Positions 20,809 to 31,849 of a stretch of DNA of 61,467 nucleotides are shown in pieces. Made by a program: the position numbers and the translations under genes. The stretch is from a virus (taxonomy: Duplodnaviria; Caudoviricetes): the IMG/VR virus record IMGVR_UViG_3300026125_000002, positions 1-61,467 of that record, one strand, 5' to 3'. Below the pieces are notes generated by a model, which ran no database searches, was not told the DNA's origin, and was given only the letters and a program-made list of their open reading frames with translations. How positions within the stretch are numbered: the first letter of the stretch is position 1; each line of letters starts with the position of its first letter.

Positions 20809-21717
20809 TTAATATAAGCCTTTGAGGCTGTTCAAGTTCGTAGTGTTATTTATACTCGGTTCATTGTCTGTTGTCAAGTAATTTTTTCTATTTGATGATT
20901 TATTTGCACCTGGAGTAGCTTGTATCTGTGCTAGATGAGGCAAACTACCACTAAAGACATATGAACCAATATGCTTAGATTTCATCCAAGGGCACATCCA
21001 TATCTTTAGACCGATCTTACGTGCATACTGACTAAACATATAGTCTTCTGACAAGTAGCGCTTAGACTCTGGATCAATCACACAATCAAAGAATGCTGTA
21101 ATCTCACGTGTACCGTCAAAGTGCTTTGTACGACCGTGGTCTGGTTTGTACTTCAATTCAGGATACGCTTCACTATACTTGATTAGAGCCTTCTTGTCAA
21201 TCATCATAAAGCCAGTTCCACCTTCTGCAATCTCAACTGGCTCATCGACACGAAAGGTTTTGACACCTTTAACAGTATTGAATACGTAGTCACCAACATA
21301 GTTCTCAAGATCGAATGGGTTGTCAACTTTACCTTGCTCAACAGCCATCTTCACTTTCTCCCAAGAGATAGTTTTCTTAGGGTATGGACCAGTGACGATA
21401 TCATAGCCTTTATCACTGTCGCATAGATGTAGCAGAGTCATAACGTTACGTGCATCAAAACCAATATCACTGTCAATAAACAACATATGGGTAGAGTCAC
21501 TACGCAAGAATTCATCTACGCAATAGTTACGTGCTCTTGTGATTAGAGACTCATTAAACAAGAAGTAGTACTTAATGTCAATACCCATCTTACCACAAAG
21601 CAGAGTTAGATCATTTGTTGCTTTAGTATACATACCTGCACACTGACCACCGTACATTGGCGTAGCGACAAACAATCTTTTCTCTTTAAGTTTTTCTAGA
21701 TCGATTTCAATCTTCAT
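20809..21717 (-). CDS. GT-A fold glycosyltransferase-like protein
   Basis: FVATPMYGG, ESLITRARN, LFIDSDIGF (DxD), GTGFMMI and LSEDYMF motifs. Confidence 0.75.
   Translation of the reverse strand: MKIEIDLEKLKEKRLFVATPMYGGQCAGMYTKATNDLTLLCGKMGIDIKYYFLFNESLITRARNYCVDEFLRSDSTHMLFIDSDIGFDARNVMTLLHLCDSDKGYDIVTGPYPKKTISWEKVKMAVEQGKVDNPFDLENYVGDYVFNTVKGVKTFRVDEPVEIAEGGTGFMMIDKKALIKYSEAYPELKYKPDHGRTKHFDGTREITAFFDCVIDPESKRYLSEDYMFSQYARKIGLKIWMCPWMKSKHIGSYVFSGSLPHLAQIQATPGANKSSNRKNYLTTDNEPSINNTTNLNSLKGLY
20847..20877 (-). promoter_or_regulatory. Composite sigma70/late promoter for gp45
   Basis: TTGACA-17-TATAAA in which the -10 is also the late consensus TATAAATA. Confidence 0.6.
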
Positions 21718-22312
21718 TATATTTTCTCTTAGTAGCCTCGAACTTTTCAGCTAGTTCTAGTTGCTCTTTAATCCACTTAGCAGACTGCTTTGCGCTGAAT
21801 GCTTCAGTTGCAACTTTAGGCATACGATCATCTTCACCGATACCACGAATAACAGAAGCGCTCAACATCATAGCTGAAGCCATAATCATACAGACTTGGT
21901 GTAGACCCGAACCATCTGCGCCATCGTCATAGTTATGACCACGTTCAAAGTCATCAATGTGGCGCTTAAGACTATCGATCATCTGTTGCCAAGGAAGACC
22001 TTTCTCCCAGTTACGATCTGCATACTTCTTAGCACCATACTCTAGTGAGGCAGCGCCAGCAGCAAGAGCTTCTAGCGGTAGTTGACGAAAGTATGGTACA
22101 CCAAGAGCTTCACGCTGAGCACCAGTCTTAGATGCATTGTATTTAGGTATTTCATTCATCCAATGATCTGGATCAACTTTATCAGTATCGTCATAAAACG
22201 CTCTGGGAACACCTGGTTCATGGTCATCAGCTAATCGATTGTAATATGCTCTAGCCACTGAGGACCACTCTTCGGGTTTGGCGTCATCAATACTTTTGAT
22301 TCTATCACTCAT
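21707..22312 (-). CDS. dATP/dGTP diphosphohydrolase-domain protein (DUF5664-like)
   Basis: YGAKKYADRNWEKG, SLKRH and SGLH motifs. Confidence 0.8.
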   Translation of the reverse strand: MSDRIKSIDDAKPEEWSSVARAYYNRLADDHEPGVPRAFYDDTDKVDPDHWMNEIPKYNASKTGAQREALGVPYFRQLPLEALAAGAASLEYGAKKYADRNWEKGLPWQQMIDSLKRHIDDFERGHNYDDGADGSGLHQVCMIMASAMMLSASVIRGIGEDDRMPKVATEAFSAKQSAKWIKEQLELAEKFEATKRKYNED

Positions 22313-22944
22313 TATCTTTCAACCTGTTCTAAATCATTCTCGGCACGACAAATAGCTTGAAGTCTTAAGATATCTGCGGCAACATCGTGTGTACTATCGT
22401 GACCTACAAATGCTTCTTTCCAATATGCTTCATCTGCAACTGGGACAAAGCCACTTCGTGTGCTGAAGTCAAATTTAGCATCGATGTATGTGCGAATGTC
22501 ACGTATGCGCCACCACTTCAAGTATTCATTCATAAGAAGATGTTGATCAAGCTGGTTCATCACACGTTCAAGCAAAACTGGATCAAACGAGTTACCACGT
22601 GACCACCAGTAATTGATCTTACCCACACTTCTTAGATAAGAGAATATATTAGCAGAAAACTCTTCTATTGTCAAGTCATCTGGTTTAGGTAATATCTTTT
22701 TCTTAGCTTCTTTTGATTGCTTTCCCCACCAAGCTAGATCATCTTTAGTATATGAACAACCACGTGCAACTTGATCAGCAACAGAAAGTTTATCTGTCTG
22801 TACTTGTGCGGTAAGTTCTTCAAAAGAGTAAGGATCACTAGTAAAGCGATCCCAGTCAAACGCTACATACGCAACGTCAATGATAGGGCATTTCATAACG
22901 TTCTGCCCTATCGTTTCAAAGTCAAGAATAAAATCTTGATTCAT
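22312..22944 (-). CDS. dexA: DexA-like 3'-5' exonuclease (DEDDh)
   Basis: DFILDFET, WSRGNSFD, RDIRT and HDSTHDVAADIL motifs. Confidence 0.85.
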   Translation of the reverse strand: MNQDFILDFETIGQNVMKCPIIDVAYVAFDWDRFTSDPYSFEELTAQVQTDKLSVADQVARGCSYTKDDLAWWGKQSKEAKKKILPKPDDLTIEEFSANIFSYLRSVGKINYWWSRGNSFDPVLLERVMNQLDQHLLMNEYLKWWRIRDIRTYIDAKFDFSTRSGFVPVADEAYWKEAFVGHDSTHDVAADILRLQAICRAENDLEQVER

Positions 22945-24332
22945 GCAGCCTCCAAAGACTCAAGGAATTGTTTCTTATATTCATGTGCATTCATATCTTG
23001 CATACGACGGTTGTGCTCTGCACTAATTACAACCAAGTTACTGTAGTCAGTTTTACCACCTTTTGAGTGAGGTATAATGTGACCACCTTGTGCGTCTTTC
23101 ATAGTCAAAGGCTCACCAGATACCCAACAAGTGTAGTCTTGCTCCATAAGCTTTAGTTCAATGTCTTTTCGATTGAAAGTACGGTTCTTATCAAGCCCAA
23201 TAACAGTAGCTTCTGTCAAGTCCATGTATTCTAGCATCCACTTGATAGTGTTGTCAAACTTGAATTGGGTATTGTGCTCACCCAAGTGCTGATTGAATGC
23301 TTCAACAATGGTTCGTGTGTCATCGTACACATCAATCTTCAAACGCTTTGGATTTCGTGGATTGAATAGCTGAAACACACGATCAAATTCACGGGCAAAA
23401 GCATCATAGTCATTCACTCGGAAGTCACCATTTGTTTCTTTAAAGTAGAAGAACAAACGATAGAGCATGACATATCGACCTTTAGTGATACCTTTGTTCA
23501 CTACTGACTTATAGCTCTGTGAACATTTCAAAATGAAATCTAGGCACTCTTTAAGCTTCTTGCCAATTTTGTTAACTTCTTTCTGATCTAGATTTGCATC
23601 TTCATACATTTCTACAAGCTTTTTGTTTGGTGAAACGATAGCTTTTTCACCTTTGTAAATCATGTATGTAATACGTGATACAGTTTCTTCAATAGCTAGT
23701 CGATCATTGTTGAAGTCAAGGTTGATCAAAGCTTTCTTCTTACTACGACCACTTTCTTCAAATAGAGCATGTGGAGTTGTTGCAGTCTGCGGAATGATGC
23801 GAACAGCTTCACGAATCAGGTTAGCGATTGGCATATCACCGTATGAGTTTAGAGTCTCTTGGAAGTTGACTTCAGTGATATTGTTGACTTCACGAAATAT
23901 TTCACCTTTCTGCTGATTAGTCAATGGACCATAGATAACAAATCGCATTGGGTAATTCAACAACCATTCACGCTCTTCTTTAGTCAATTCATTGACGTAC
24001 TTCTCACCTACAATAGAAGATTTGTGTGTTGGAAAGTCGCCATTCAAGAAGCCAATTATTGTACGCTTACGATTACCACCATCAATTGATTCATACTCGT
24101 ATCGACCTTCAGGCTCTTCACAAATACGAATCTCACCTATATCACGACCACGCAAGATACAATCGATGATACTCTGCTGTTTAGATGGCTCAGATGCGCC
24201 TATTGGATTCGGGGAAACGTCTGGTCGCTGAGTGACTGGATTACAGTCAATGCTCAAACGCATAGCCCAGAACTCACGAATGTTCATTTGCTTGAGTGTC
24301 CAAGTAGGTGCTTTAGGCGGTGGTAGTATCAT
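22941..24332 (-). CDS. DUF262 (ParB/Srx-like) + HNH protein, GmrSD-like architecture
   Basis: QR, IDGGNR and IFREVN DUF262 motifs; C-terminal GHIIPHSKGGKT..NLVV...HN. Confidence 0.8.
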   Translation of the reverse strand: MILPPPKAPTWTLKQMNIREFWAMRLSIDCNPVTQRPDVSPNPIGASEPSKQQSIIDCILRGRDIGEIRICEEPEGRYEYESIDGGNRKRTIIGFLNGDFPTHKSSIVGEKYVNELTKEEREWLLNYPMRFVIYGPLTNQQKGEIFREVNNITEVNFQETLNSYGDMPIANLIREAVRIIPQTATTPHALFEESGRSKKKALINLDFNNDRLAIEETVSRITYMIYKGEKAIVSPNKKLVEMYEDANLDQKEVNKIGKKLKECLDFILKCSQSYKSVVNKGITKGRYVMLYRLFFYFKETNGDFRVNDYDAFAREFDRVFQLFNPRNPKRLKIDVYDDTRTIVEAFNQHLGEHNTQFKFDNTIKWMLEYMDLTEATVIGLDKNRTFNRKDIELKLMEQDYTCWVSGEPLTMKDAQGGHIIPHSKGGKTDYSNLVVISAEHNRRMQDMNAHEYKKQFLESLEAA

Positions 24333-24720: not shown

Positions 24721-25431
24721 TTATTTTATGGCAATTGCACCAACAAACAAGTGATTCTGCCAGAAGGTTTGAACTGAATTGAAGCCCGCTGTTGATAGCA
24801 TTTCGTTCAACTCACTCCAAGTATTTGGTTTGAGCATACTACGTAGATCACGCTCTTTGTCCATAATATCTTCTACAGTGAAGTTCTCACGTTTAAAGTC
24901 GTAATACATGAATGTTAGCATATCTTGAACCTTAGGACTGCAAGAATATGTCTTCTCGGCAAAAACAAATGCACCACCAGTATTAAGACCTTTATAGATT
25001 TTATTAAGAACATCTTGCCTATCTTTGTGTGGCATAAACTGTAGTGTAAAGATAGATGTTATCATAGAACAATTAGCGAAATCAAACTCACGTACATCAG
25101 CTTGTCTAAGATCGATTTCGGGATACTGGCTCATTCTTTTTTTCATGTCATCAACAAAACCATCTGCATAGTCGATACCTCGATATCGTGCCTTTGGTGC
25201 AAAATGATGATTCTGGTCATACATAGCGGCAAGAGTCTTACCAGTAGAACAACCGATATCGACAACATTAGTATCATTCTCTACGAAGTACTTCGACATT
25301 TTAACAATATCGTCATGGAGAGAGGAGTAGTGTCTAATGCTCATATCGATATGATTATCAAAACCCTCTTGGCGGTGTGCAAATGTGAAATCGTTTGCAC
25401 TAGCAACAGTAGACTTTTCACGATCTTTCAT
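24721..25431 (-). CDS. cmoA: CmoA-like carboxy-S-adenosylmethionine synthase
   Basis: FDNHIDMSIRHY, DIGCSTG, FTLQF, LNTGGAFVFAEK, YDFKR and FWQ follow the CmoA motif order. Confidence 0.85.
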   Translation of the reverse strand: MKDREKSTVASANDFTFAHRQEGFDNHIDMSIRHYSSLHDDIVKMSKYFVENDTNVVDIGCSTGKTLAAMYDQNHHFAPKARYRGIDYADGFVDDMKKRMSQYPEIDLRQADVREFDFANCSMITSIFTLQFMPHKDRQDVLNKIYKGLNTGGAFVFAEKTYSCSPKVQDMLTFMYYDFKRENFTVEDIMDKERDLRSMLKPNTWSELNEMLSTAGFNSVQTFWQNHLFVGAIAIK

Positions 25432-25435
25432 AATA

Positions 25436-26662
25436 TTAGCCCTTTAGTTCATTGTATGGTTTCAACACATTCTGATATATCGACTTAGCAACTTCAGCCA
25501 TCATCTTAGGCGCAACCATGCGACCAATGCGCTCGGCTTGCTGATCAAATGTACCAGTTAGCTTATAGTCATCAGGTAGCGACATTATAACCTTTAGCTC
25601 TTGTATTGTCAACTTACGATTTTCAGCGTAGTGGAATACACCAGATAGACCACGCTTCTGACCTTGTTGAGTCAAAGTTGGACTAGGTAGATGTGGTGCA
25701 GGTCTGATCATGTTGAAGCAAGAACCTTTTGGATTCCAACTGCGAAACTCTGGATCACTTGGTTTAGTATGCTTGAGTGGTCGAAACGGTAGCGGGTCTA
25801 GAAACTTCTTCTGAAACGAATTCTCGTAGAAGTCACGTAGCATCTGCACTTCTTCAGGATCATTCTCAATATCTTCAATAGCTGATTCAAGACTGACTGG
25901 TTGTGCGACAGTCTTAGCAGGAAAGATACCGTTTAGATTTAGAACATTTAGACCAATAGCATCACAAACATCTTCACGAACACAAATAAAGATAGTACGC
26001 TCACGTGCTTGTGGAGTACCATAATCTGCGGCATTTAGAACTTGATACGTTACTTGATACCCAATAGCTTCGAATGACTTGATGAACTCAAACAGCTTCT
26101 TCTGGGCTTCACCAAACGTAATGCCTTTGACATTCTCTGCAACGATAACCTTGGGTTTAATGTCTTTAGCTACACGAATGAACTCTAAGAACAAGTCCTC
26201 AATACCTTCCTGAGTCTTACCGTCAGAGTACTTCTTGATACCCTCTTTAATCTTTAACTCACCTTCTTGAACGATGTTACCGTCTTCATCAAAGTAAGTT
26301 TTGCGAGTATCTTCAGCATAGCCAGCCCAACCCTTTTCACGCTTACCCGCTACAGAGAATGCGGAACATGGTGGAGAGCCGTCTAGAATATCTAGCTCTC
26401 CCACCTTAAGGTTTGCCATCTTTAAGAAGTCTTCACCAGAGTACTTTTTGATATCATCAACTAATACAGGAGTGTCTGGGTAGTTCTCCTTATAAGATGC
26501 AATAGCTTCTTCTACAAACTCATTAATGAGTAGTATATTACCGCCAGCGAGGCGATAGCCAGTGGAGCTACCTCCACCTCCGGCGAAACAACTAACGACT
26601 GAAAATAATTTTTTATTCGATTCATTTTTAACATCTTCGACTGTATACTTTTGGTATTTCAT
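25436..26662 (-). CDS. C5-cytosine DNA methyltransferase-family enzyme, predicted carboxymethyltransferase
   Basis: FAGGGG (motif I), GSPPCSAFS (IV), ENV (VI), QARER (VIII); motif X reads IGRMV instead of GN(A/S)V. Confidence 0.88.
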   Translation of the reverse strand: MKYQKYTVEDVKNESNKKLFSVVSCFAGGGGSSTGYRLAGGNILLINEFVEEAIASYKENYPDTPVLVDDIKKYSGEDFLKMANLKVGELDILDGSPPCSAFSVAGKREKGWAGYAEDTRKTYFDEDGNIVQEGELKIKEGIKKYSDGKTQEGIEDLFLEFIRVAKDIKPKVIVAENVKGITFGEAQKKLFEFIKSFEAIGYQVTYQVLNAADYGTPQARERTIFICVREDVCDAIGLNVLNLNGIFPAKTVAQPVSLESAIEDIENDPEEVQMLRDFYENSFQKKFLDPLPFRPLKHTKPSDPEFRSWNPKGSCFNMIRPAPHLPSPTLTQQGQKRGLSGVFHYAENRKLTIQELKVIMSLPDDYKLTGTFDQQAERIGRMVAPKMMAEVAKSIYQNVLKPYNELKG

Positions 26663-26670
26663 CTTTGCCC

Positions 26671-27480
26671 TCAAAATAAAGTTGGACCTACGTCTTGCCA
26701 GTCTCGGACTAGATCCATGACTCTTTGCCTATTATATAGGTTTATGCTTTTGTTGTCAAGCAACTTTTCAAAGTAGTCAGGAATACCCGCAACTAATTGT
26801 AGGTTCTCATGTTTGCGTCTCTTGATCTGTTTAATCTCTGAGAACGCTTCATGTATGGGCGCCTTTTGGGATGGTTTATTGAAAAAGTCCCAGTCGTGTT
26901 GCATCATCCAATCAGCAACTTCAGGTTCAAGATATGGTGCGATTAATTTCATACCATACTCTTCTGCTAGTTGCCTTTGCTGTAGAACACCCGCTGGATT
27001 CTCTGCCCCGAAGTAGTCTGTGCGGAACTTATCGAAAAGCTCTTTAGTGTGTTTGAAATGAATGTTAGCACGTTTAGAAACACCGTACCAACCATCAGCC
27101 GCTACACCAGACAATACTACTTTCTGTTCAATCTTTGGATACACATACAAGAATGGAAATGTGCATTCAACTTGGGTCTTCTTCTTACAACCGTACCTAT
27201 TTATAAGAGTAAAGAAGTCATCGGCTATATTATCTACGGGTACATTAACGCCAACGAAGTCCCAACCAAAATGCTCTGCAACGTCTTTAGCACCTAGACT
27301 ATCACTAGTCTGTTTACCGTTAACGTACATGCTATACCCAGTAACTTTCTTACCGAGTCTATGTGCGGCTAGCGCACACGTGATACTATCTGTTCCTGCC
27401 GATAAAAGAACGGCAACCTCATCAATACCTTGAGATTGCCTTTCTACAATATCGACAATGATATCGTCAATATTTTTCAT
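26671..27480 (-). CDS. Asparagine-synthetase-like ATP-dependent amide ligase (synthetase domain only)
   Basis: LLSAGTDS PP-loop; VLSGVAADGWYG; APYL; no N-terminal glutaminase domain. Confidence 0.8.
   Translation of the reverse strand: MKNIDDIIVDIVERQSQGIDEVAVLLSAGTDSITCALAAHRLGKKVTGYSMYVNGKQTSDSLGAKDVAEHFGWDFVGVNVPVDNIADDFFTLINRYGCKKKTQVECTFPFLYVYPKIEQKVVLSGVAADGWYGVSKRANIHFKHTKELFDKFRTDYFGAENPAGVLQQRQLAEEYGMKLIAPYLEPEVADWMMQHDWDFFNKPSQKAPIHEAFSEIKQIKRRKHENLQLVAGIPDYFEKLLDNKSINLYNRQRVMDLVRDWQDVGPTLF
26731..26759 (-). promoter_or_regulatory. Consensus sigma70 promoter for the MTase-cmoA pair, inside the upstream gene
   Basis: TTGACA-17-TATAAT. Confidence 0.7.
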
Positions 27481-29189
27481 TATGCTGCCATTCTACTAAA
27501 GTTCTTCACTTTCTCAAATCTTACTACATGATCAAACTTCTCATACAATTGATCACCTTTATGACTAATTATAAAGATGTTTGAGTCTGCTGTCAACTCA
27601 TTTATGATCTTAAGAAATTCATCAGTACCAGAGGTGTCTAATGAAGAATCCATAATCTCATCCATAATGAGTAGGTTAGTCGATACTGAGTTTCTTAGTT
27701 TACTAACGGCTCGCCACGTGAATAGTAGGGCAAGGTCAATACGTAGCTTCTCGCCTTCGGAGAAAGAAGCATAAGAAAACACATCACGAAAACGGCTCTT
27801 AATAGTCTCATTGAAGTTTTCATCCAATTCAAATTGCACAAAGAAGTCCATAGCGGCTAGGTACTTGTTAATGAGTTTGTTCATAACAGGTACGTACTGC
27901 TTAATGATTCGAGTCTTGATACCACCATCTTTCAACATAGATGATACAATACCCAAAGTCTCTTTATCTTCAAACAACTGATTTTGCTTGTTATGATAAG
28001 TTACTAGATCATCTTCAAGTTTAGCAATAGAAGTAGTATCGATAGCTTCTACCTGCTGTTCTGCATTTGTCAACTCTTCTTTGATTGCTTTGCAAGTATT
28101 CATTGCAATCTTGTAGTTTGCGTTATGCTCAGACATTTCTAGGTTCTTAGCTGAGATTGTAGATTCAACACCATCAATCTCTTCTAGTCGAGTCTCTACA
28201 CTATTAAATCGATCTTGCAATTGTTCTCTTGCTGATTCGACTTCTGAGATTTTGGTTGTGGTTCCTTCGATCTCTTGTGTTTTGAACTCATGTTCGATAC
28301 CTTGTCTACAGGTTGGACAATCATCGTGTTCCCTATAGAATTCGATATCTTTTCGTAGTTTCGATAGTTTATTGGAAAGTTGACCATCAATTTTCTGTAG
28401 CTCCTGTAGCTTCTTCTTCATAGAAGCTTTGTCAGATACGCTCTGGGTTAGTTCTGTAACTTCATCCATTAGCGTCTGTACAGCTTCCTGCTCTGCTTCA
28501 ATAATACTTATCTGTTCCTTGAGTTTAGCTTTAAGCTTGGCTACTTCACCCTCTCGCAACTGACGAATAGATTCGTTATGCTCTTTAGCGCTATCAATCT
28601 TATTCTCAAGTAAATCGATCTGGTACTTGATTTCTTGAATCTCTTCTTTATTACTAGATACACGCTCTTTCAATAGTGTATTCATCACAGTAAAGATTTG
28701 AATATCAAGTAGGTCTTCGATTACTTCACGGCGATCTTTTGCGCTCAACTGCATGAACGGTACAAACGTACTAGAACCAAGAACAACTACTTGACCAAAG
28801 GACTTGTAGTTCATCTTCAAGATGTTTTCTTCTAGATATGCTTGATAGTCACGTACTGCGGCATCTTGATTGACTAGTTCACCATTGCACCAAATCTCAA
28901 AGATGTTGGGTTTGATACCACGCTTAATGTTGTACTTCTTCTTACCAATCTCAAAGTCTAACTCTACTCGCAAGTCTTTCTTGTTGATAGAGTTTAGCAA
29001 CTGTGGCTTCTTAATGTTACGAAACGCTTTACCGTACAATGCAAAAGCAATGGCGTCAAGCATAGTAGACTTGCCTGCACCATTGTCACCAACGATAAGC
29101 GTAGACTTGTTACGATCTAGCTCAATCGTAGTCCACGCATTACCAGTTGAAAGAATGTTCTTAAAGCGTACTTCTTTGAATAGAATCAT
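27480..29189 (-). CDS. gp46: Recombination nuclease ATPase subunit (gp46, Rad50/SbcC-like)
   Basis: GDNGAGKST; CPTC zinc hook; FSEGEK; LIMDE; ISH. Confidence 0.97.
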   Translation of the reverse strand: MILFKEVRFKNILSTGNAWTTIELDRNKSTLIVGDNGAGKSTMLDAIAFALYGKAFRNIKKPQLLNSINKKDLRVELDFEIGKKKYNIKRGIKPNIFEIWCNGELVNQDAAVRDYQAYLEENILKMNYKSFGQVVVLGSSTFVPFMQLSAKDRREVIEDLLDIQIFTVMNTLLKERVSSNKEEIQEIKYQIDLLENKIDSAKEHNESIRQLREGEVAKLKAKLKEQISIIEAEQEAVQTLMDEVTELTQSVSDKASMKKKLQELQKIDGQLSNKLSKLRKDIEFYREHDDCPTCRQGIEHEFKTQEIEGTTTKISEVESAREQLQDRFNSVETRLEEIDGVESTISAKNLEMSEHNANYKIAMNTCKAIKEELTNAEQQVEAIDTTSIAKLEDDLVTYHNKQNQLFEDKETLGIVSSMLKDGGIKTRIIKQYVPVMNKLINKYLAAMDFFVQFELDENFNETIKSRFRDVFSYASFSEGEKLRIDLALLFTWRAVSKLRNSVSTNLLIMDEIMDSSLDTSGTDEFLKIINELTADSNIFIISHKGDQLYEKFDHVVRFEKVKNFSRMAA

Positions 29190-30253
29190 AGGCTCATTGC
29201 CTCTTGATATAGCTCATTCAAGAACTTCTGAATCTTCACTTTATCACCCTTAATCTCTAAGTTATCAACGTATTGACGCAAGATGGTCATAGTGTCTTGC
29301 GCCTCATCGATAAGCTCATCTTCATTAATTACGTCAAGATTTTGATGATCCTCAACAACTTTGATATCAGCAGGTGCCGCTTTCTGCAAGCGGTCTAAGA
29401 ATAGATCAAAGATGTAAGGATTCTCTTTCTTGCTTACTATAACTTTAATGAAAGTATTTGTCAATGGAGAAGTGTCAAGATTTGCAACATCTTCAATAGT
29501 CATATCAGCATCATCATACGTGATCTTGTGGAACAAACGTAGAGGATTGCGTACATATGTCATTTTACGTGTTGATGTGTCAAACACACTAAAGCCACGC
29601 TTCTGGTCATAGTCAGACCACGTTAGCTCATATTGGGCACCTAGATATGTAATGTTACCATGTGAAGATGGTTGATGAAAGTGACCAGAGTACACTGCAT
29701 CGAACTTAGAGAACACATTACGGTCCATACCGTGATCGCAGATATGACCCTTGTCCATTTCATAACCAACAATCTCGAAGTGACCCATTAGAATCTGCGC
29801 TTTAGTCTCAGCCATAGCTTTCATAGAGGCATCGTGATTCTCAGCACAAATCCACGGAGCAAGCATAATCTTACAGCCGTCCATGTCTAGCTCTACTGGT
29901 TCTTCCCAGAATAGATGTAGATTATCATAGCTTGAGTTGCCATACAGTTGACGTAGACTGTTTACGTCATTAGTATTCTTGAAGTAAGTGTCGTGGTTAC
30001 CTGCGATCATGTATAGCTGAATACCCTCTTCAGCGCACACTCGCATAAACTGCTCTTCAAGATTCTTTGCTGTTACAAAGTTAATGTACTTGCGTCTATC
30101 TGTAACATCGCCTAAGTGAAAGATCGTCTTGATATCGTTTTCACGTAAGTATGGAAAGAACACCTCACGATAGAACTGGTGTTGGTGCTCTGCAATAGCC
30201 GCATTGTCATTACGTGCTCCAAAATGTGTATCGTTTAATATAGCTATACGCAT
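29186..30253 (-). CDS. gp47: Recombination nuclease subunit (gp47, Mre11/SbcD-like)
   Basis: DTHFG, HLGD, GNHD and SGHFH motifs. Confidence 0.97.
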   Translation of the reverse strand: MRIAILNDTHFGARNDNAAIAEHQHQFYREVFFPYLRENDIKTIFHLGDVTDRRKYINFVTAKNLEEQFMRVCAEEGIQLYMIAGNHDTYFKNTNDVNSLRQLYGNSSYDNLHLFWEEPVELDMDGCKIMLAPWICAENHDASMKAMAETKAQILMGHFEIVGYEMDKGHICDHGMDRNVFSKFDAVYSGHFHQPSSHGNITYLGAQYELTWSDYDQKRGFSVFDTSTRKMTYVRNPLRLFHKITYDDADMTIEDVANLDTSPLTNTFIKVIVSKKENPYIFDLFLDRLQKAAPADIKVVEDHQNLDVINEDELIDEAQDTMTILRQYVDNLEIKGDKVKIQKFLNELYQEAMSL

Positions 30254-30266
30254 ATATTCCTCATAA

Positions 30267-31106
30267 TTAACTTGGTAATGAATCGATGTAGCGCTTAGCT
30301 TCTGATTTACTAAACAGACCTACACGTACCATTCTCTCAATTAGTGGTATTGCATCTTGCTTAGATACAGGTACCAATTCGCCTACATTGTAACAGTAAT
30401 TTGCTACTGTGTCAACCAATTCTTGCTCTGTCATAACTCCATCCTTTCCAACACGAAATGCTGGGTCGATTCCATTAGCATAGAACTTTTTGTACAAGTG
30501 CTTACTAATACCAGTAGCTTCTTTGAAATCATTCCAACCTAGATATGTTTCGCCATTGTACTCTATTCTTAATGCAGTCTTTTCTTTAGACTTTTGTGCA
30601 CCGCTCTTAGAACGTTCTCTTTGTTCTTTTAGATACTGGTCGTAGTTTTCTTTGCGCTTAGCGTTTAGATCGTTCATTCGCTCAGACTGCGCTTCTCTAC
30701 GCTCTACTGCATCTTCCCACTGTTTATAAACACCCTCAGTTACTTTAGTTATCCACTCAGGGTTTTGTTTAGAAGGGTGATTCTCTTTTAAAAAGTTAGA
30801 CCAAGCAATTCTAAATGCATTGTACTGTCTAGAGTTTAGTGGTTCAGTTTTACCGTGAACAATTCTATGTAATGCCCATTGCATCTTATAGTAATCATTA
30901 CCTTCTGTGAACTTAACTAACAGTCTATGTGCTATGTAATGCTCTCTTGCTGTTAGATTGACTAGATTCTCAGGGTCGTCTGAGCCACCAAGACTTCTAG
31001 GAAGAATATGGTGACTCTCGCAGTAGCATTCATTTTTGTCTAGTTGATCAACCTTGCGCTTATTGATTAGCTTATCGTAGATTCTTTTGTATTTGTTATC
31101 TATCAT
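30267..31106 (-). mobile_element. Free-standing HNH homing endonuclease gene
   Basis: ESHHILPRSLGGSDDPENLVNLTAREHYIAHRLL; inserted between gp55 and gp47; alternative GTG start at 31118. Confidence 0.85.
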
Positions 31107-31147
31107 TACGTACCCCACGTTACTCGGTGTCTGTAATGATATTTATA
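31101..31147 (-). promoter_or_regulatory. Late promoter plus start-codon-sequestering hairpin of the HNH gene
   Basis: TATAAATA at 31140-31147; 9-bp inverted repeat 31133-31141/31101-31109 covering ATG 31106. Confidence 0.6.
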
Positions 31148-31820: not shown

Positions 31821-31849
31821 TTGACAGGTATTGGTAGGCTCTGTATAAT
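31821..31849 (+). promoter_or_regulatory. Consensus sigma70 promoter, antisense to the uvsY-uvsW operon
   Basis: TTGACA-17-TATAAT with an AT-rich upstream element; no credible plus-strand ORF downstream. Confidence 0.6.

Follow-up and report, generated by a model that had tools for sequence, protein, structure and literature searches.

Positions 24721–27480 of the uncultivated virus record IMGVR_UViG_3300026125_000002 very probably hold a CmoY–CmoX–CmoA DNA hypermodification cassette of a T4-like phage. The record, hereafter called the window, is the whole stretch of DNA that was analyzed, a linear IMG/VR virus record of 61,467 bases that is about 34% complete. The assignment follows by analogy from Synechococcus phage S-B43, for which CmoA, CmoX, and CmoY were described with biochemistry and structure by Yang et al. 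(Nat Commun 17:281, Dec 2025; PMC12783734). According to the open reading frame (ORF) list of the window, three minus-strand ORFs occupy the locus exactly:

26671..27480, minus strand: CmoY-like amide ligase, ATP-dependent, 269 aa, formed by an AsnB-type synthetase domain alone
25436..26674, minus strand: CmoX-like C5-carboxymethyltransferase, 412 aa from TTG 26674, probably 408 aa from ATG 26662
24721..25431, minus strand: CmoA-like carboxy-SAM synthase, 236 aa

An earlier note, made from the sequence alone, had reported adjacent AsnB-like, C5-methyltransferase, and CmoA-like genes after gp46, and this arrangement is confirmed by the ORFs, by domain searches with E-values far outside the range of chance, and by the tblastn annotations of gp46. 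Its proposal of a carboxy-S-adenosylmethionine (carboxy-SAM, Cx-SAM) synthase acting with an Arg-switched carboxymethyltransferase and an amide ligase gains support from the match to the S-B43 trio, with identities of 53%, 49%, and 46% for CmoA, CmoX, and CmoY. The comparable Synechococcus phage trio that it mentioned is that of S-B43, and its statement on the M.MpeI N374K carboxymethyltransferase is correct according to the Discussion of PMC12783734.

CmoX, a C5-methyltransferase homologue of the Arg type

The product of the middle gene matches the DNA_methylase family of Pfam (PF00145, E 5.7e-51). It displays the motifs FAGGGG (I), GSPPC (IV, with Cys103), ENV (VI, with Glu180), QARER (VIII), and IGRMV (X, with Arg385), the key residues being Cys103, Glu180, Arg224/Arg226, and Arg385. 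The catalytic motifs are, thus, intact and motif X carries an Arg, just as first noted. Arg385 sits at the position of the motif-X Asn because the HMMER alignment with M.HaeIII (1DCT) places i-g-R-m-v opposite i-g-N-a-v. The earlier note had let its proposal depend on this very correspondence, and Arg385 pairs not only with the Asn of M.HaeIII but also with Arg350 of the S-B43 enzyme (SpCmoX).

SpCmoX is 49% identical to the CmoX of the window over the full length (BLASTP, E 1e-124), and its structure (PDB 8YF3) is matched with E 6.7e-106 across residues 9–405. Counted along the BLASTP alignment, Arg385 equals Arg350 and Cys103 equals Cys98 of SpCmoX. The contacts to the adenine and ribose of Cx-SAM are kept as well, with F30/E52/F53/D74 of the window corresponding to F25/E47/F48/D69. 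SpCmoX makes 5-carboxymethylcytosine (5cxmC) at GC motifs, and the wild type accepts Cx-SAM only; Arg350 contacts the carboxymethyl group of Cx-SAM (8YF3), and the R350N variant accepts neither cofactor (PMC12783734). Both features used in the published search for CmoX proteins, the SPPC motif and an Arg at the position of Arg350 and HhaI Asn304, are found in the window. The estimated alignment score of the type used by the Enzyme Function Initiative (EFI) is about 101 compared with a published threshold of 70. The M.MpeI structures (4DKJ/8C56) match CmoX at E about 5e-6.

Between motif IV and the YSDGK segment, CmoX contains a longer loop of residues about 113–147, and its relatives occur in a long form of 405–420 aa and a short form of about 380–385 aa.

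CmoA, a carboxy-SAM synthase homologue

The third ORF encodes SAM-methyltransferase domains (Pfam). Its two best NCBIfam matches are both CmoA equivalogs, with E 1.9e-36 (TIGR00740) and 2.1e-30. It is 53% identical to the CmoA of S-B43 over the full length (BLASTP, E 8e-88), which produces carboxy-SAM (PMC12783734). The structure of Escherichia coli CmoA (4GEK) is also matched over the full length with E 2e-28.

CmoY, a stand-alone synthetase domain

CmoY matches Asn_synthase (PF00733, E 2.4e-14) at residues 4–139, in the synthetase part only, and is 46% identical to the CmoY of S-B43 (SpCmoY) over 265 residues (BLASTP, E 7e-81). A sequence search of the PDB returned only spurious matches to designed repeats and an NAD synthetase at E 0.028; hence, a fold search was needed. 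It was performed with an AlphaFold model built from 22 sequences (predicted local distance difference test, pLDDT, of 91.5). The best PDB folds are β-lactam synthetase (1MC1, query-normalized template modeling score, TMq, of 0.76), asparagine synthetases, and carbapenam synthetase, with TMq 0.66–0.76 at sequence identities of 14–17%. These matches cover only the C-terminal synthetase half of those enzymes (target-normalized score, TMt, of about 0.4). CmoY fits only this half and is, therefore, read as a stand-alone synthetase domain without a glutaminase domain.

Among 64 CmoY sequences, 28 columns are at least 95% conserved, and SpCmoY has the same residue in 27 of them. The EFI-type alignment score to SpCmoY, estimated from the BLAST bit score, is about 65 against a published cluster threshold of 56 and would place the ligase of the window in the SpCmoY cluster, which keeps the residues that bind the glycine carboxylate (PMC12783734).

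Ligases resembling CmoY (37–39% identity) are also found in jumbo phages of Erwinia, Dickeya, and Yersinia, e.g., at MZ443772 16303–17115, with 43 records coming from Erwinia phages and a few from others. These records are not among the CmoX matches at E<=1e-40; hence, the jumbo-phage ligases may act on a different carboxylate.

Conservation and gene order among relatives

Of 108 IMG/VR relatives of CmoX, 80 loci were retained, at 61–83% identity, and these were aligned together with the window and S-B43 (82 sequences). GSPPC and ENV are present in all 82. The motif-X Arg is present in each of the 81 sequences that reach motif X, the remaining one ending at a contig edge; the Gly before this Arg is replaced by Ala or Cys in three sequences.

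The cassette is anchored upstream by two conserved genes that are named from tblastn annotations:

27480..30253, minus strand: gp46/gp47-like recombination nuclease genes, conserved upstream anchor of the cassette
27480..29189, minus strand: gp46-like gene
29186..30253, minus strand: gp47-like gene

The tblastn matches of the gp46-like ORF carry the annotation "recombination endonuclease subunit". The start of the CmoY ORF coincides with the last base of the gp46-like ORF (27480), the CmoY and CmoX ORFs overlap by 4 nt, and a gap of 4 nt separates CmoX from CmoA. For CmoX, the ATG at 26662, preceded by a GAGG Shine–Dalgarno sequence, is a more likely start than the TTG at 26674.

By tblastn, CmoA is matched in 77, CmoY in 64, gp46 in 61, and gp47 in 51 of the 80 loci. 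Gene order was read from the 41 well-flanked loci, meaning those with at least 3 kb on each side of CmoX. Herein, CmoA is adjacent in 41/41 and CmoY in 36/41, and gp46 lies upstream of the cassette in 39/41. The order Y-X-A of the window is found in 26 of the 41 (six of them with the nuclease gene next), X-Y-A in nine, X-A in five, and X-nuclease-Y-A in one.

A homologue outside of this pattern is found in the cultured Methylophilales phage Melnitz-3 (3510–4727). It is 37% identical to CmoX, carries a Leu at the position of the Arg, and its first residue aligns with M5 of the window protein, i.e., the ATG at 26662. The complete circular 141-kb genome of Melnitz-3 gives no match to the CmoA of the window. 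By sequence, this Leu-type protein without a CmoA match is a natural negative control for the pairing of Arg and CmoA.

These observations bear on whether the three genes form one DNA pathway at all. CmoX might be an ordinary methylase making 5-methylcytosine, and CmoA might serve the cmo5U of host tRNA or drain SAM. Such a reading is in line with Pfam and NCBIfam, which call the middle gene a C5 DNA methylase, with PHROGs, which labels the CmoA family "tRNA methyltransferase," and with SAM depletion being raised as a possible side effect in PMC12783734. However, SpCmoX accepts Cx-SAM only and its R350N variant neither cofactor, and the window has the same Arg and the same Cx-SAM contacts. Furthermore, CmoB (PF08003) was not found in the window, itself about 34% of the genome, and CmoA adjoins an Arg-type CmoX in every well-flanked locus, with the Leu-type Melnitz genome giving no CmoA match. 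An ordinary methylase is, in sum, extremely improbable.

Proposed pathway and its weak points

In the cassette reading, CmoA would turn SAM and host prephenate into carboxy-SAM. Cys103 of CmoX would then attack C6 of a flipped-out cytosine, and the carboxymethyl group of Cx-SAM would be transferred to C5; Arg385, replacing the motif-X Asn, would hold the carboxylate of Cx-SAM. The predicted product is 5cxmC in duplex DNA after replication. CmoY would adenylate the carboxylate of 5cxmC and couple an amine, most probably glycine, to give 5-glycyl-carboxymethylcytosine (5gcxmC). DNA modified in this way would resist host restriction endonucleases. It is only for the S-B43 homologues that the three activities, the function of the Arg, the GpC target, and HhaI resistance have been demonstrated; for the window, we infer the same activities, the GpC target, and early expression from host-type promoters.

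Several observations weigh against this reading or parts of it. First, CmoA and CmoY both score under the NCBIfam equivalog cut-offs. For TIGR00740, the CmoA of the window reaches 125.9 bits at a cut-off of 193.3, but the proven SpCmoA reaches only 115.6; hence, this cut-off does not discriminate against the phage CmoA clade. Second, Arg199 of E. coli CmoA has two possible placements on the CmoA of the window in pairwise alignment: the ungapped HMMER alignment puts a Glu opposite Arg199 and an Arg one residue later, and an alternative register matches R-S-M-L exactly. The segment in this region, LR[SD]MLKPNTW, is common to the window and the active SpCmoA. Third, CmoX and SpCmoX share only 37% identity in the target-recognition region, compared with 54–62% in the catalytic parts, and 19 extra residues follow motif IV in the enzyme of the window. 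With this divergence and the 19-residue longer loop, a GpC target is not assured. Within the set of 82 relatives, conservation of the recognition region is good, with a column mean of 0.72. The window contains 2,657 GpC dinucleotides (observed/expected 1.10), and if GpC is the target, 5,314 of the 24,459 cytosines on both strands would be concerned, about 22%. Fourth, a pathway that replaces cytosine altogether is possible, the record being about 34% of the genome; no gene of the thymidylate-synthase/dCMP-hydroxymethylase family (PF00303) was found in this part.

The remaining points concern CmoY. It lies in a separate clade of five tree rows (100/100 support, stem 0.47), and S-B43 lies on a long branch. 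Among 60 full-length CmoYs, the PP-loop sequence SAGTDS is confined to the window and the six closest relatives of its ligase, and a Gly is found at the place of this Ala in all 53 others (SGGxDS). Private changes of the clade are G28A (in the PP-loop), S34T, K177M, and H207A, from which a different amine or an altered CmoY activity is possible. The fixation of the Ala throughout the seven-sequence clade argues for a PP-loop that is functional.

Identity of the coupled amine

The CmoY of S-B43 is AsnB-like and ligates glycine to give 5gcxmC, which was found in virion DNA; glycine was required in vitro, and the nucleoside of the glycine adduct appears at m/z 343.1 compared with 286.1 for 5cxmdC, i.e., +57 Da (PMC12783734). 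By analogy, glycine is somewhat favored as the amine coupled by the CmoY of the window, the product then being 5gcxmC.

The same pathway with another amine, such as a polyamine, some small amine, or an amino acid other than glycine, would lead to a cytosine adduct not yet described. The distinct clade of a ligase that is 46% identical to SpCmoY, the long branch of the latter, and the four private changes all point this way, as does the published statement that other amines are the probable substrates of several ligase clusters (PMC12783734). Against this stand the small number of clade-specific changes at otherwise conserved columns, only six, and the nearly invariant basic residues K136, R153, K206, R251, and R253 that are common to SpCmoY. 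We regard another amine as rather unlikely, and a search for a different adduct could nonetheless reasonably begin with a ligase clade that has such an unusual PP-loop.

Free ammonia, giving 5-carbamoylmethylcytosine, is a quite improbable substrate. AsnB-type synthetase domains can use it, free NH3 requires no glutaminase domain, and the NAD synthetase among the weak matches of CmoY is NH3-dependent. However, the sole characterized member without a glutaminase domain ligates glycine and needs it in vitro, and the ligases published as candidates for ammonia transfer cluster apart and possess a glutaminase domain (PMC12783734). The earlier note had named carbamoylmethylcytosine first, which is the less likely product given the glycine-ligating homologue; its hedge toward another amine, made because no glutaminase domain is present, was well placed.

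Comparison with known systems

The cassette of the window and that of S-B43 share the same three families, adjacent on one strand in a T4-like phage, together with the SPPC motif, the carboxylate-binding Arg, the Cx-SAM contacts, and a ligase without a glutaminase domain. They differ in gene order (A-Y-X in S-B43, Y-X-A in the window) and in address, the S-B43 cassette following a primase-helicase/pyrophosphatase group and that of the window directly following gp46. The PP-loop is SGGVDS in SpCmoY and SAGTDS in the window. Perfect σ70 sites precede each gene of the window, whereas no such promoter-like site was found in a scan of the S-B43 locus. Finally, S-B43 has a cyanobacterial host, and the nearest cultured phages of the window by gp46 infect Stenotrophomonas and Sinorhizobium.

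M.MpeI N374K resembles CmoX in that a basic residue in place of the motif-X Asn lets a C5-methyltransferase use Cx-SAM. It is, however, an engineered carboxymethyltransferase, a Lys variant with a CpG target built on a methyltransferase scaffold and only distantly related to the CmoX of the window. A natural DNA methyltransferase reported to carboxymethylate cytosine is M.MedI of Mycoplasmopsis edwardii (Chem Sci 2025, PMC12015181). According to the abstract, this bacterial enzyme modifies CG sites and lacks a dedicated CmoA or ligase.

The bacterial CmoA/CmoB pathway to cmo5U shares the CmoA chemistry, i.e., the formation of Cx-SAM from SAM and prephenate. Its acceptor is ho5U34 of tRNA (5-hydroxyuridine), unlike the DNA cytosine of the proposed pathway, for which no CmoB was found in the window. 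AsnB, β-lactam synthetase, and carbapenam synthetase share with CmoY the PP-loop ATP-pyrophosphatase fold and the adenylation of a carboxylate followed by amide formation. CmoY differs by lacking the Ntn (N-terminal nucleophile) glutaminase domain at the N terminus, by its length of 269 aa compared with about 500, and by a carboxylate substrate that would be a base in DNA.

The chemistry itself is no longer new since Yang et al. published biochemistry, a crystal structure, and a survey. It has been in print since December 2025, and the survey of IMG/VR v4, UniProt, and MGnify, which includes the source collection of the window, lists 5,615 CmoX candidates, 4,257 CmoA, 2,251 ligases, and 1,660 ParBc proteins (PMC12783734). 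A literature search on CmoX gave this one relevant paper among the matches listed, and the words "promoter," "T4-like," and "HNH" appear nowhere in its text. What the window adds is a cassette-bearing T4-like lineage that, among cultured phages, is closest to those of heterotrophic proteobacteria and not of cyanobacteria, a fixed address beside gp46/gp47, and a strong host-type promoter-like site for each gene. It also adds the same slot with a glycosyltransferase cassette in a near relative, marking a likely swap hotspot for DNA modification.

Promoter-like sites

Five perfect matches to TTGACA-N17-TATAAT are found in the window:

27568..27596, minus strand: within the gp46 coding sequence, 88 nt ahead of the CmoY start
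26731..26759, minus strand: within the CmoY coding sequence, 57 nt ahead of the CmoX TTG (69 nt ahead of the ATG)
25584..25612, minus strand: within the CmoX coding sequence, 153 nt ahead of the CmoA start
1131–1159 and 31821–31849, plus strand: no obvious downstream ORF

In total, the window contains 14 sites with at most one mismatch compared with 0.99 expected, a number reached in none of 100 shuffles. The five perfect sites are included in the 14, and three of the five precede the Cmo genes. In relatives with enough upstream sequence to be counted, a site with at most one mismatch occurs within 260 nt upstream of CmoX in 49/79, of CmoA in 24/77, and of CmoY in 3/59, at a background of 0.34 per kb. 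As pattern matches, they hint at transcription of the cassette by host RNA polymerase, which would fit early expression. The two plus-strand sites face away from the mostly minus-strand genes.

The gp46 slot and the neighboring nuclease

On the far side of the cassette lies an accessory neighbor:

22941..24332, minus strand: ParB/DUF262-like and HNH nuclease, 463 aa

Its C-terminal part gives HNH matches in Pfam (E 1.4e-4 and 6.6e-4), and its family has invariant residues H418/N432/N441 and a motif DGG[HN]R.R near the N terminus. This motif resembles the DGQQR of the ParB-like domain of GmrS/DUF262 (PMC4619093). Neighbors in the ESM Atlas include bacterial clusters in which 98–100% of the members have GmrSD_N (PF03235) together with HNH. 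The best PDB fold of the AlphaFold model (pLDDT 84.6) is BrxU of the GmrSD family, a weak match (E 1e-3, TM 0.22). The profile hidden Markov models PF02195 (ParB_N) and PF03235 gave no match at E<=1 anywhere in the window, Pfam up to E=10 returned HNH-type matches only for the nuclease, and a profile of nine homologues found only HNH domains among PDB sequences. Taken together, the protein is probably a phage-borne GmrSD-like nuclease, as far as its N-terminal part is concerned.

At least 116 homologues are found in IMG/VR, and none turned up at E<=1e-8 when 50,697 records of cultured phages were searched by tblastn. As the nuclease gene is present in only 10/80 CmoX loci, it was rejected as a core fourth component of the cassette. 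A reverse search was made in 80 loci that hold nuclease homologues. Of these 80, 12 have a Cmo cassette next to the nuclease homologue and about 18 have TET-associated glycosyltransferase family genes (PF20691, E 4.4e-40) there; the rest have gp45, gp44, RNase H, DNA polymerase, or RtcB genes as neighbors. In several loci, the glycosyltransferase cassette fills the same slot between gp46 and the nuclease. Two of them (L158:4867-7893 and L133:4231-7138) contain PF20691 genes and a weak RXYLT1-like match in the slot, with a gp46 that is 70–92% identical to that of the window. From this arrangement, the slot looks like a swap site for DNA-modification cassettes. A cytidylyltransferase-like gene that is absent from the window lies beside the glycosyltransferase cassette. 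It was rejected as glycosyltransferase-specific, being also present between gp46 and CmoY in the 10 Cmo-type relatives that have both.

The identity of the nuclease to the protein of the window is 40–57% in Cmo-type loci, even at 49% gp46 identity, and 33–35% in glycosyltransferase-type loci, even at 92% gp46 identity; in L158, the two values are 35% and 92%. A FastTree phylogeny of 66 nucleases unites that of the window with 11 of the 12 other Cmo-linked ones in one clade. The slot might be an exchangeable self-marking locus in which each cassette travels with its own branch of GmrSD-like nucleases reading the modification state; the nuclease would spare marked self DNA and cut the DNA of the host or of rival phages. 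If true, this would be a phage-borne counterpart of a restriction–modification pair built on 5gcxmC. We consider it improbable as a whole. The nuclease occurs in only 10 of the 80 CmoX loci, and many homologues lie among replication genes, as homing-type endonucleases do. The clade pattern is equally compatible with a wholesale replacement downstream of gp46 or with a mobile homing-type gene. In the literature on DUF262, HNH, and phage hypermodification, no title or abstract among the matches listed ties a phage-encoded nuclease to this modification.

Genome setting

Domain searches of the window proteins show that a T4-like replication and recombination module surrounds the cassette. Along the minus strand, the order is UvsW, a gp55-like sigma factor, an HNH endonuclease, gp47, gp46, and the Cmo trio, followed by an 81-aa helix-turn-helix protein, the 463-aa nuclease, a DexA-like exonuclease, and a MazG-like dNTP (deoxynucleoside triphosphate) pyrophosphatase. 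The module ends in the same direction with gp45, gp44, gp43, ligase, UvsX, and gp41. Megablast of the locus against the 50,697 cultured phage records gave no match, and the phage, therefore, has no close cultured relative among them. By gp46, the nearest cultured phages are those of Stenotrophomonas (53.5%), Sinorhizobium (51%), and Methylophilales (48%), with cyanophages reaching up to 47%. Scans of the window with Rfam (gathering threshold) and for tRNAs found nothing.

A few genes at most separate the Cmo cassette from a dNTP pyrophosphatase gene both in the window (21707–22312) and in S-B43 (L001:4675-5082), as judged by PF18909 in the former and by the annotation "pyrophosphatase" in the latter. 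A free-standing HNH endonuclease gene of 283 aa (30267–31118, minus strand) is placed between gp47 and the gp55-like sigma gene, a position typical of the homing endonucleases of T4-like phages.

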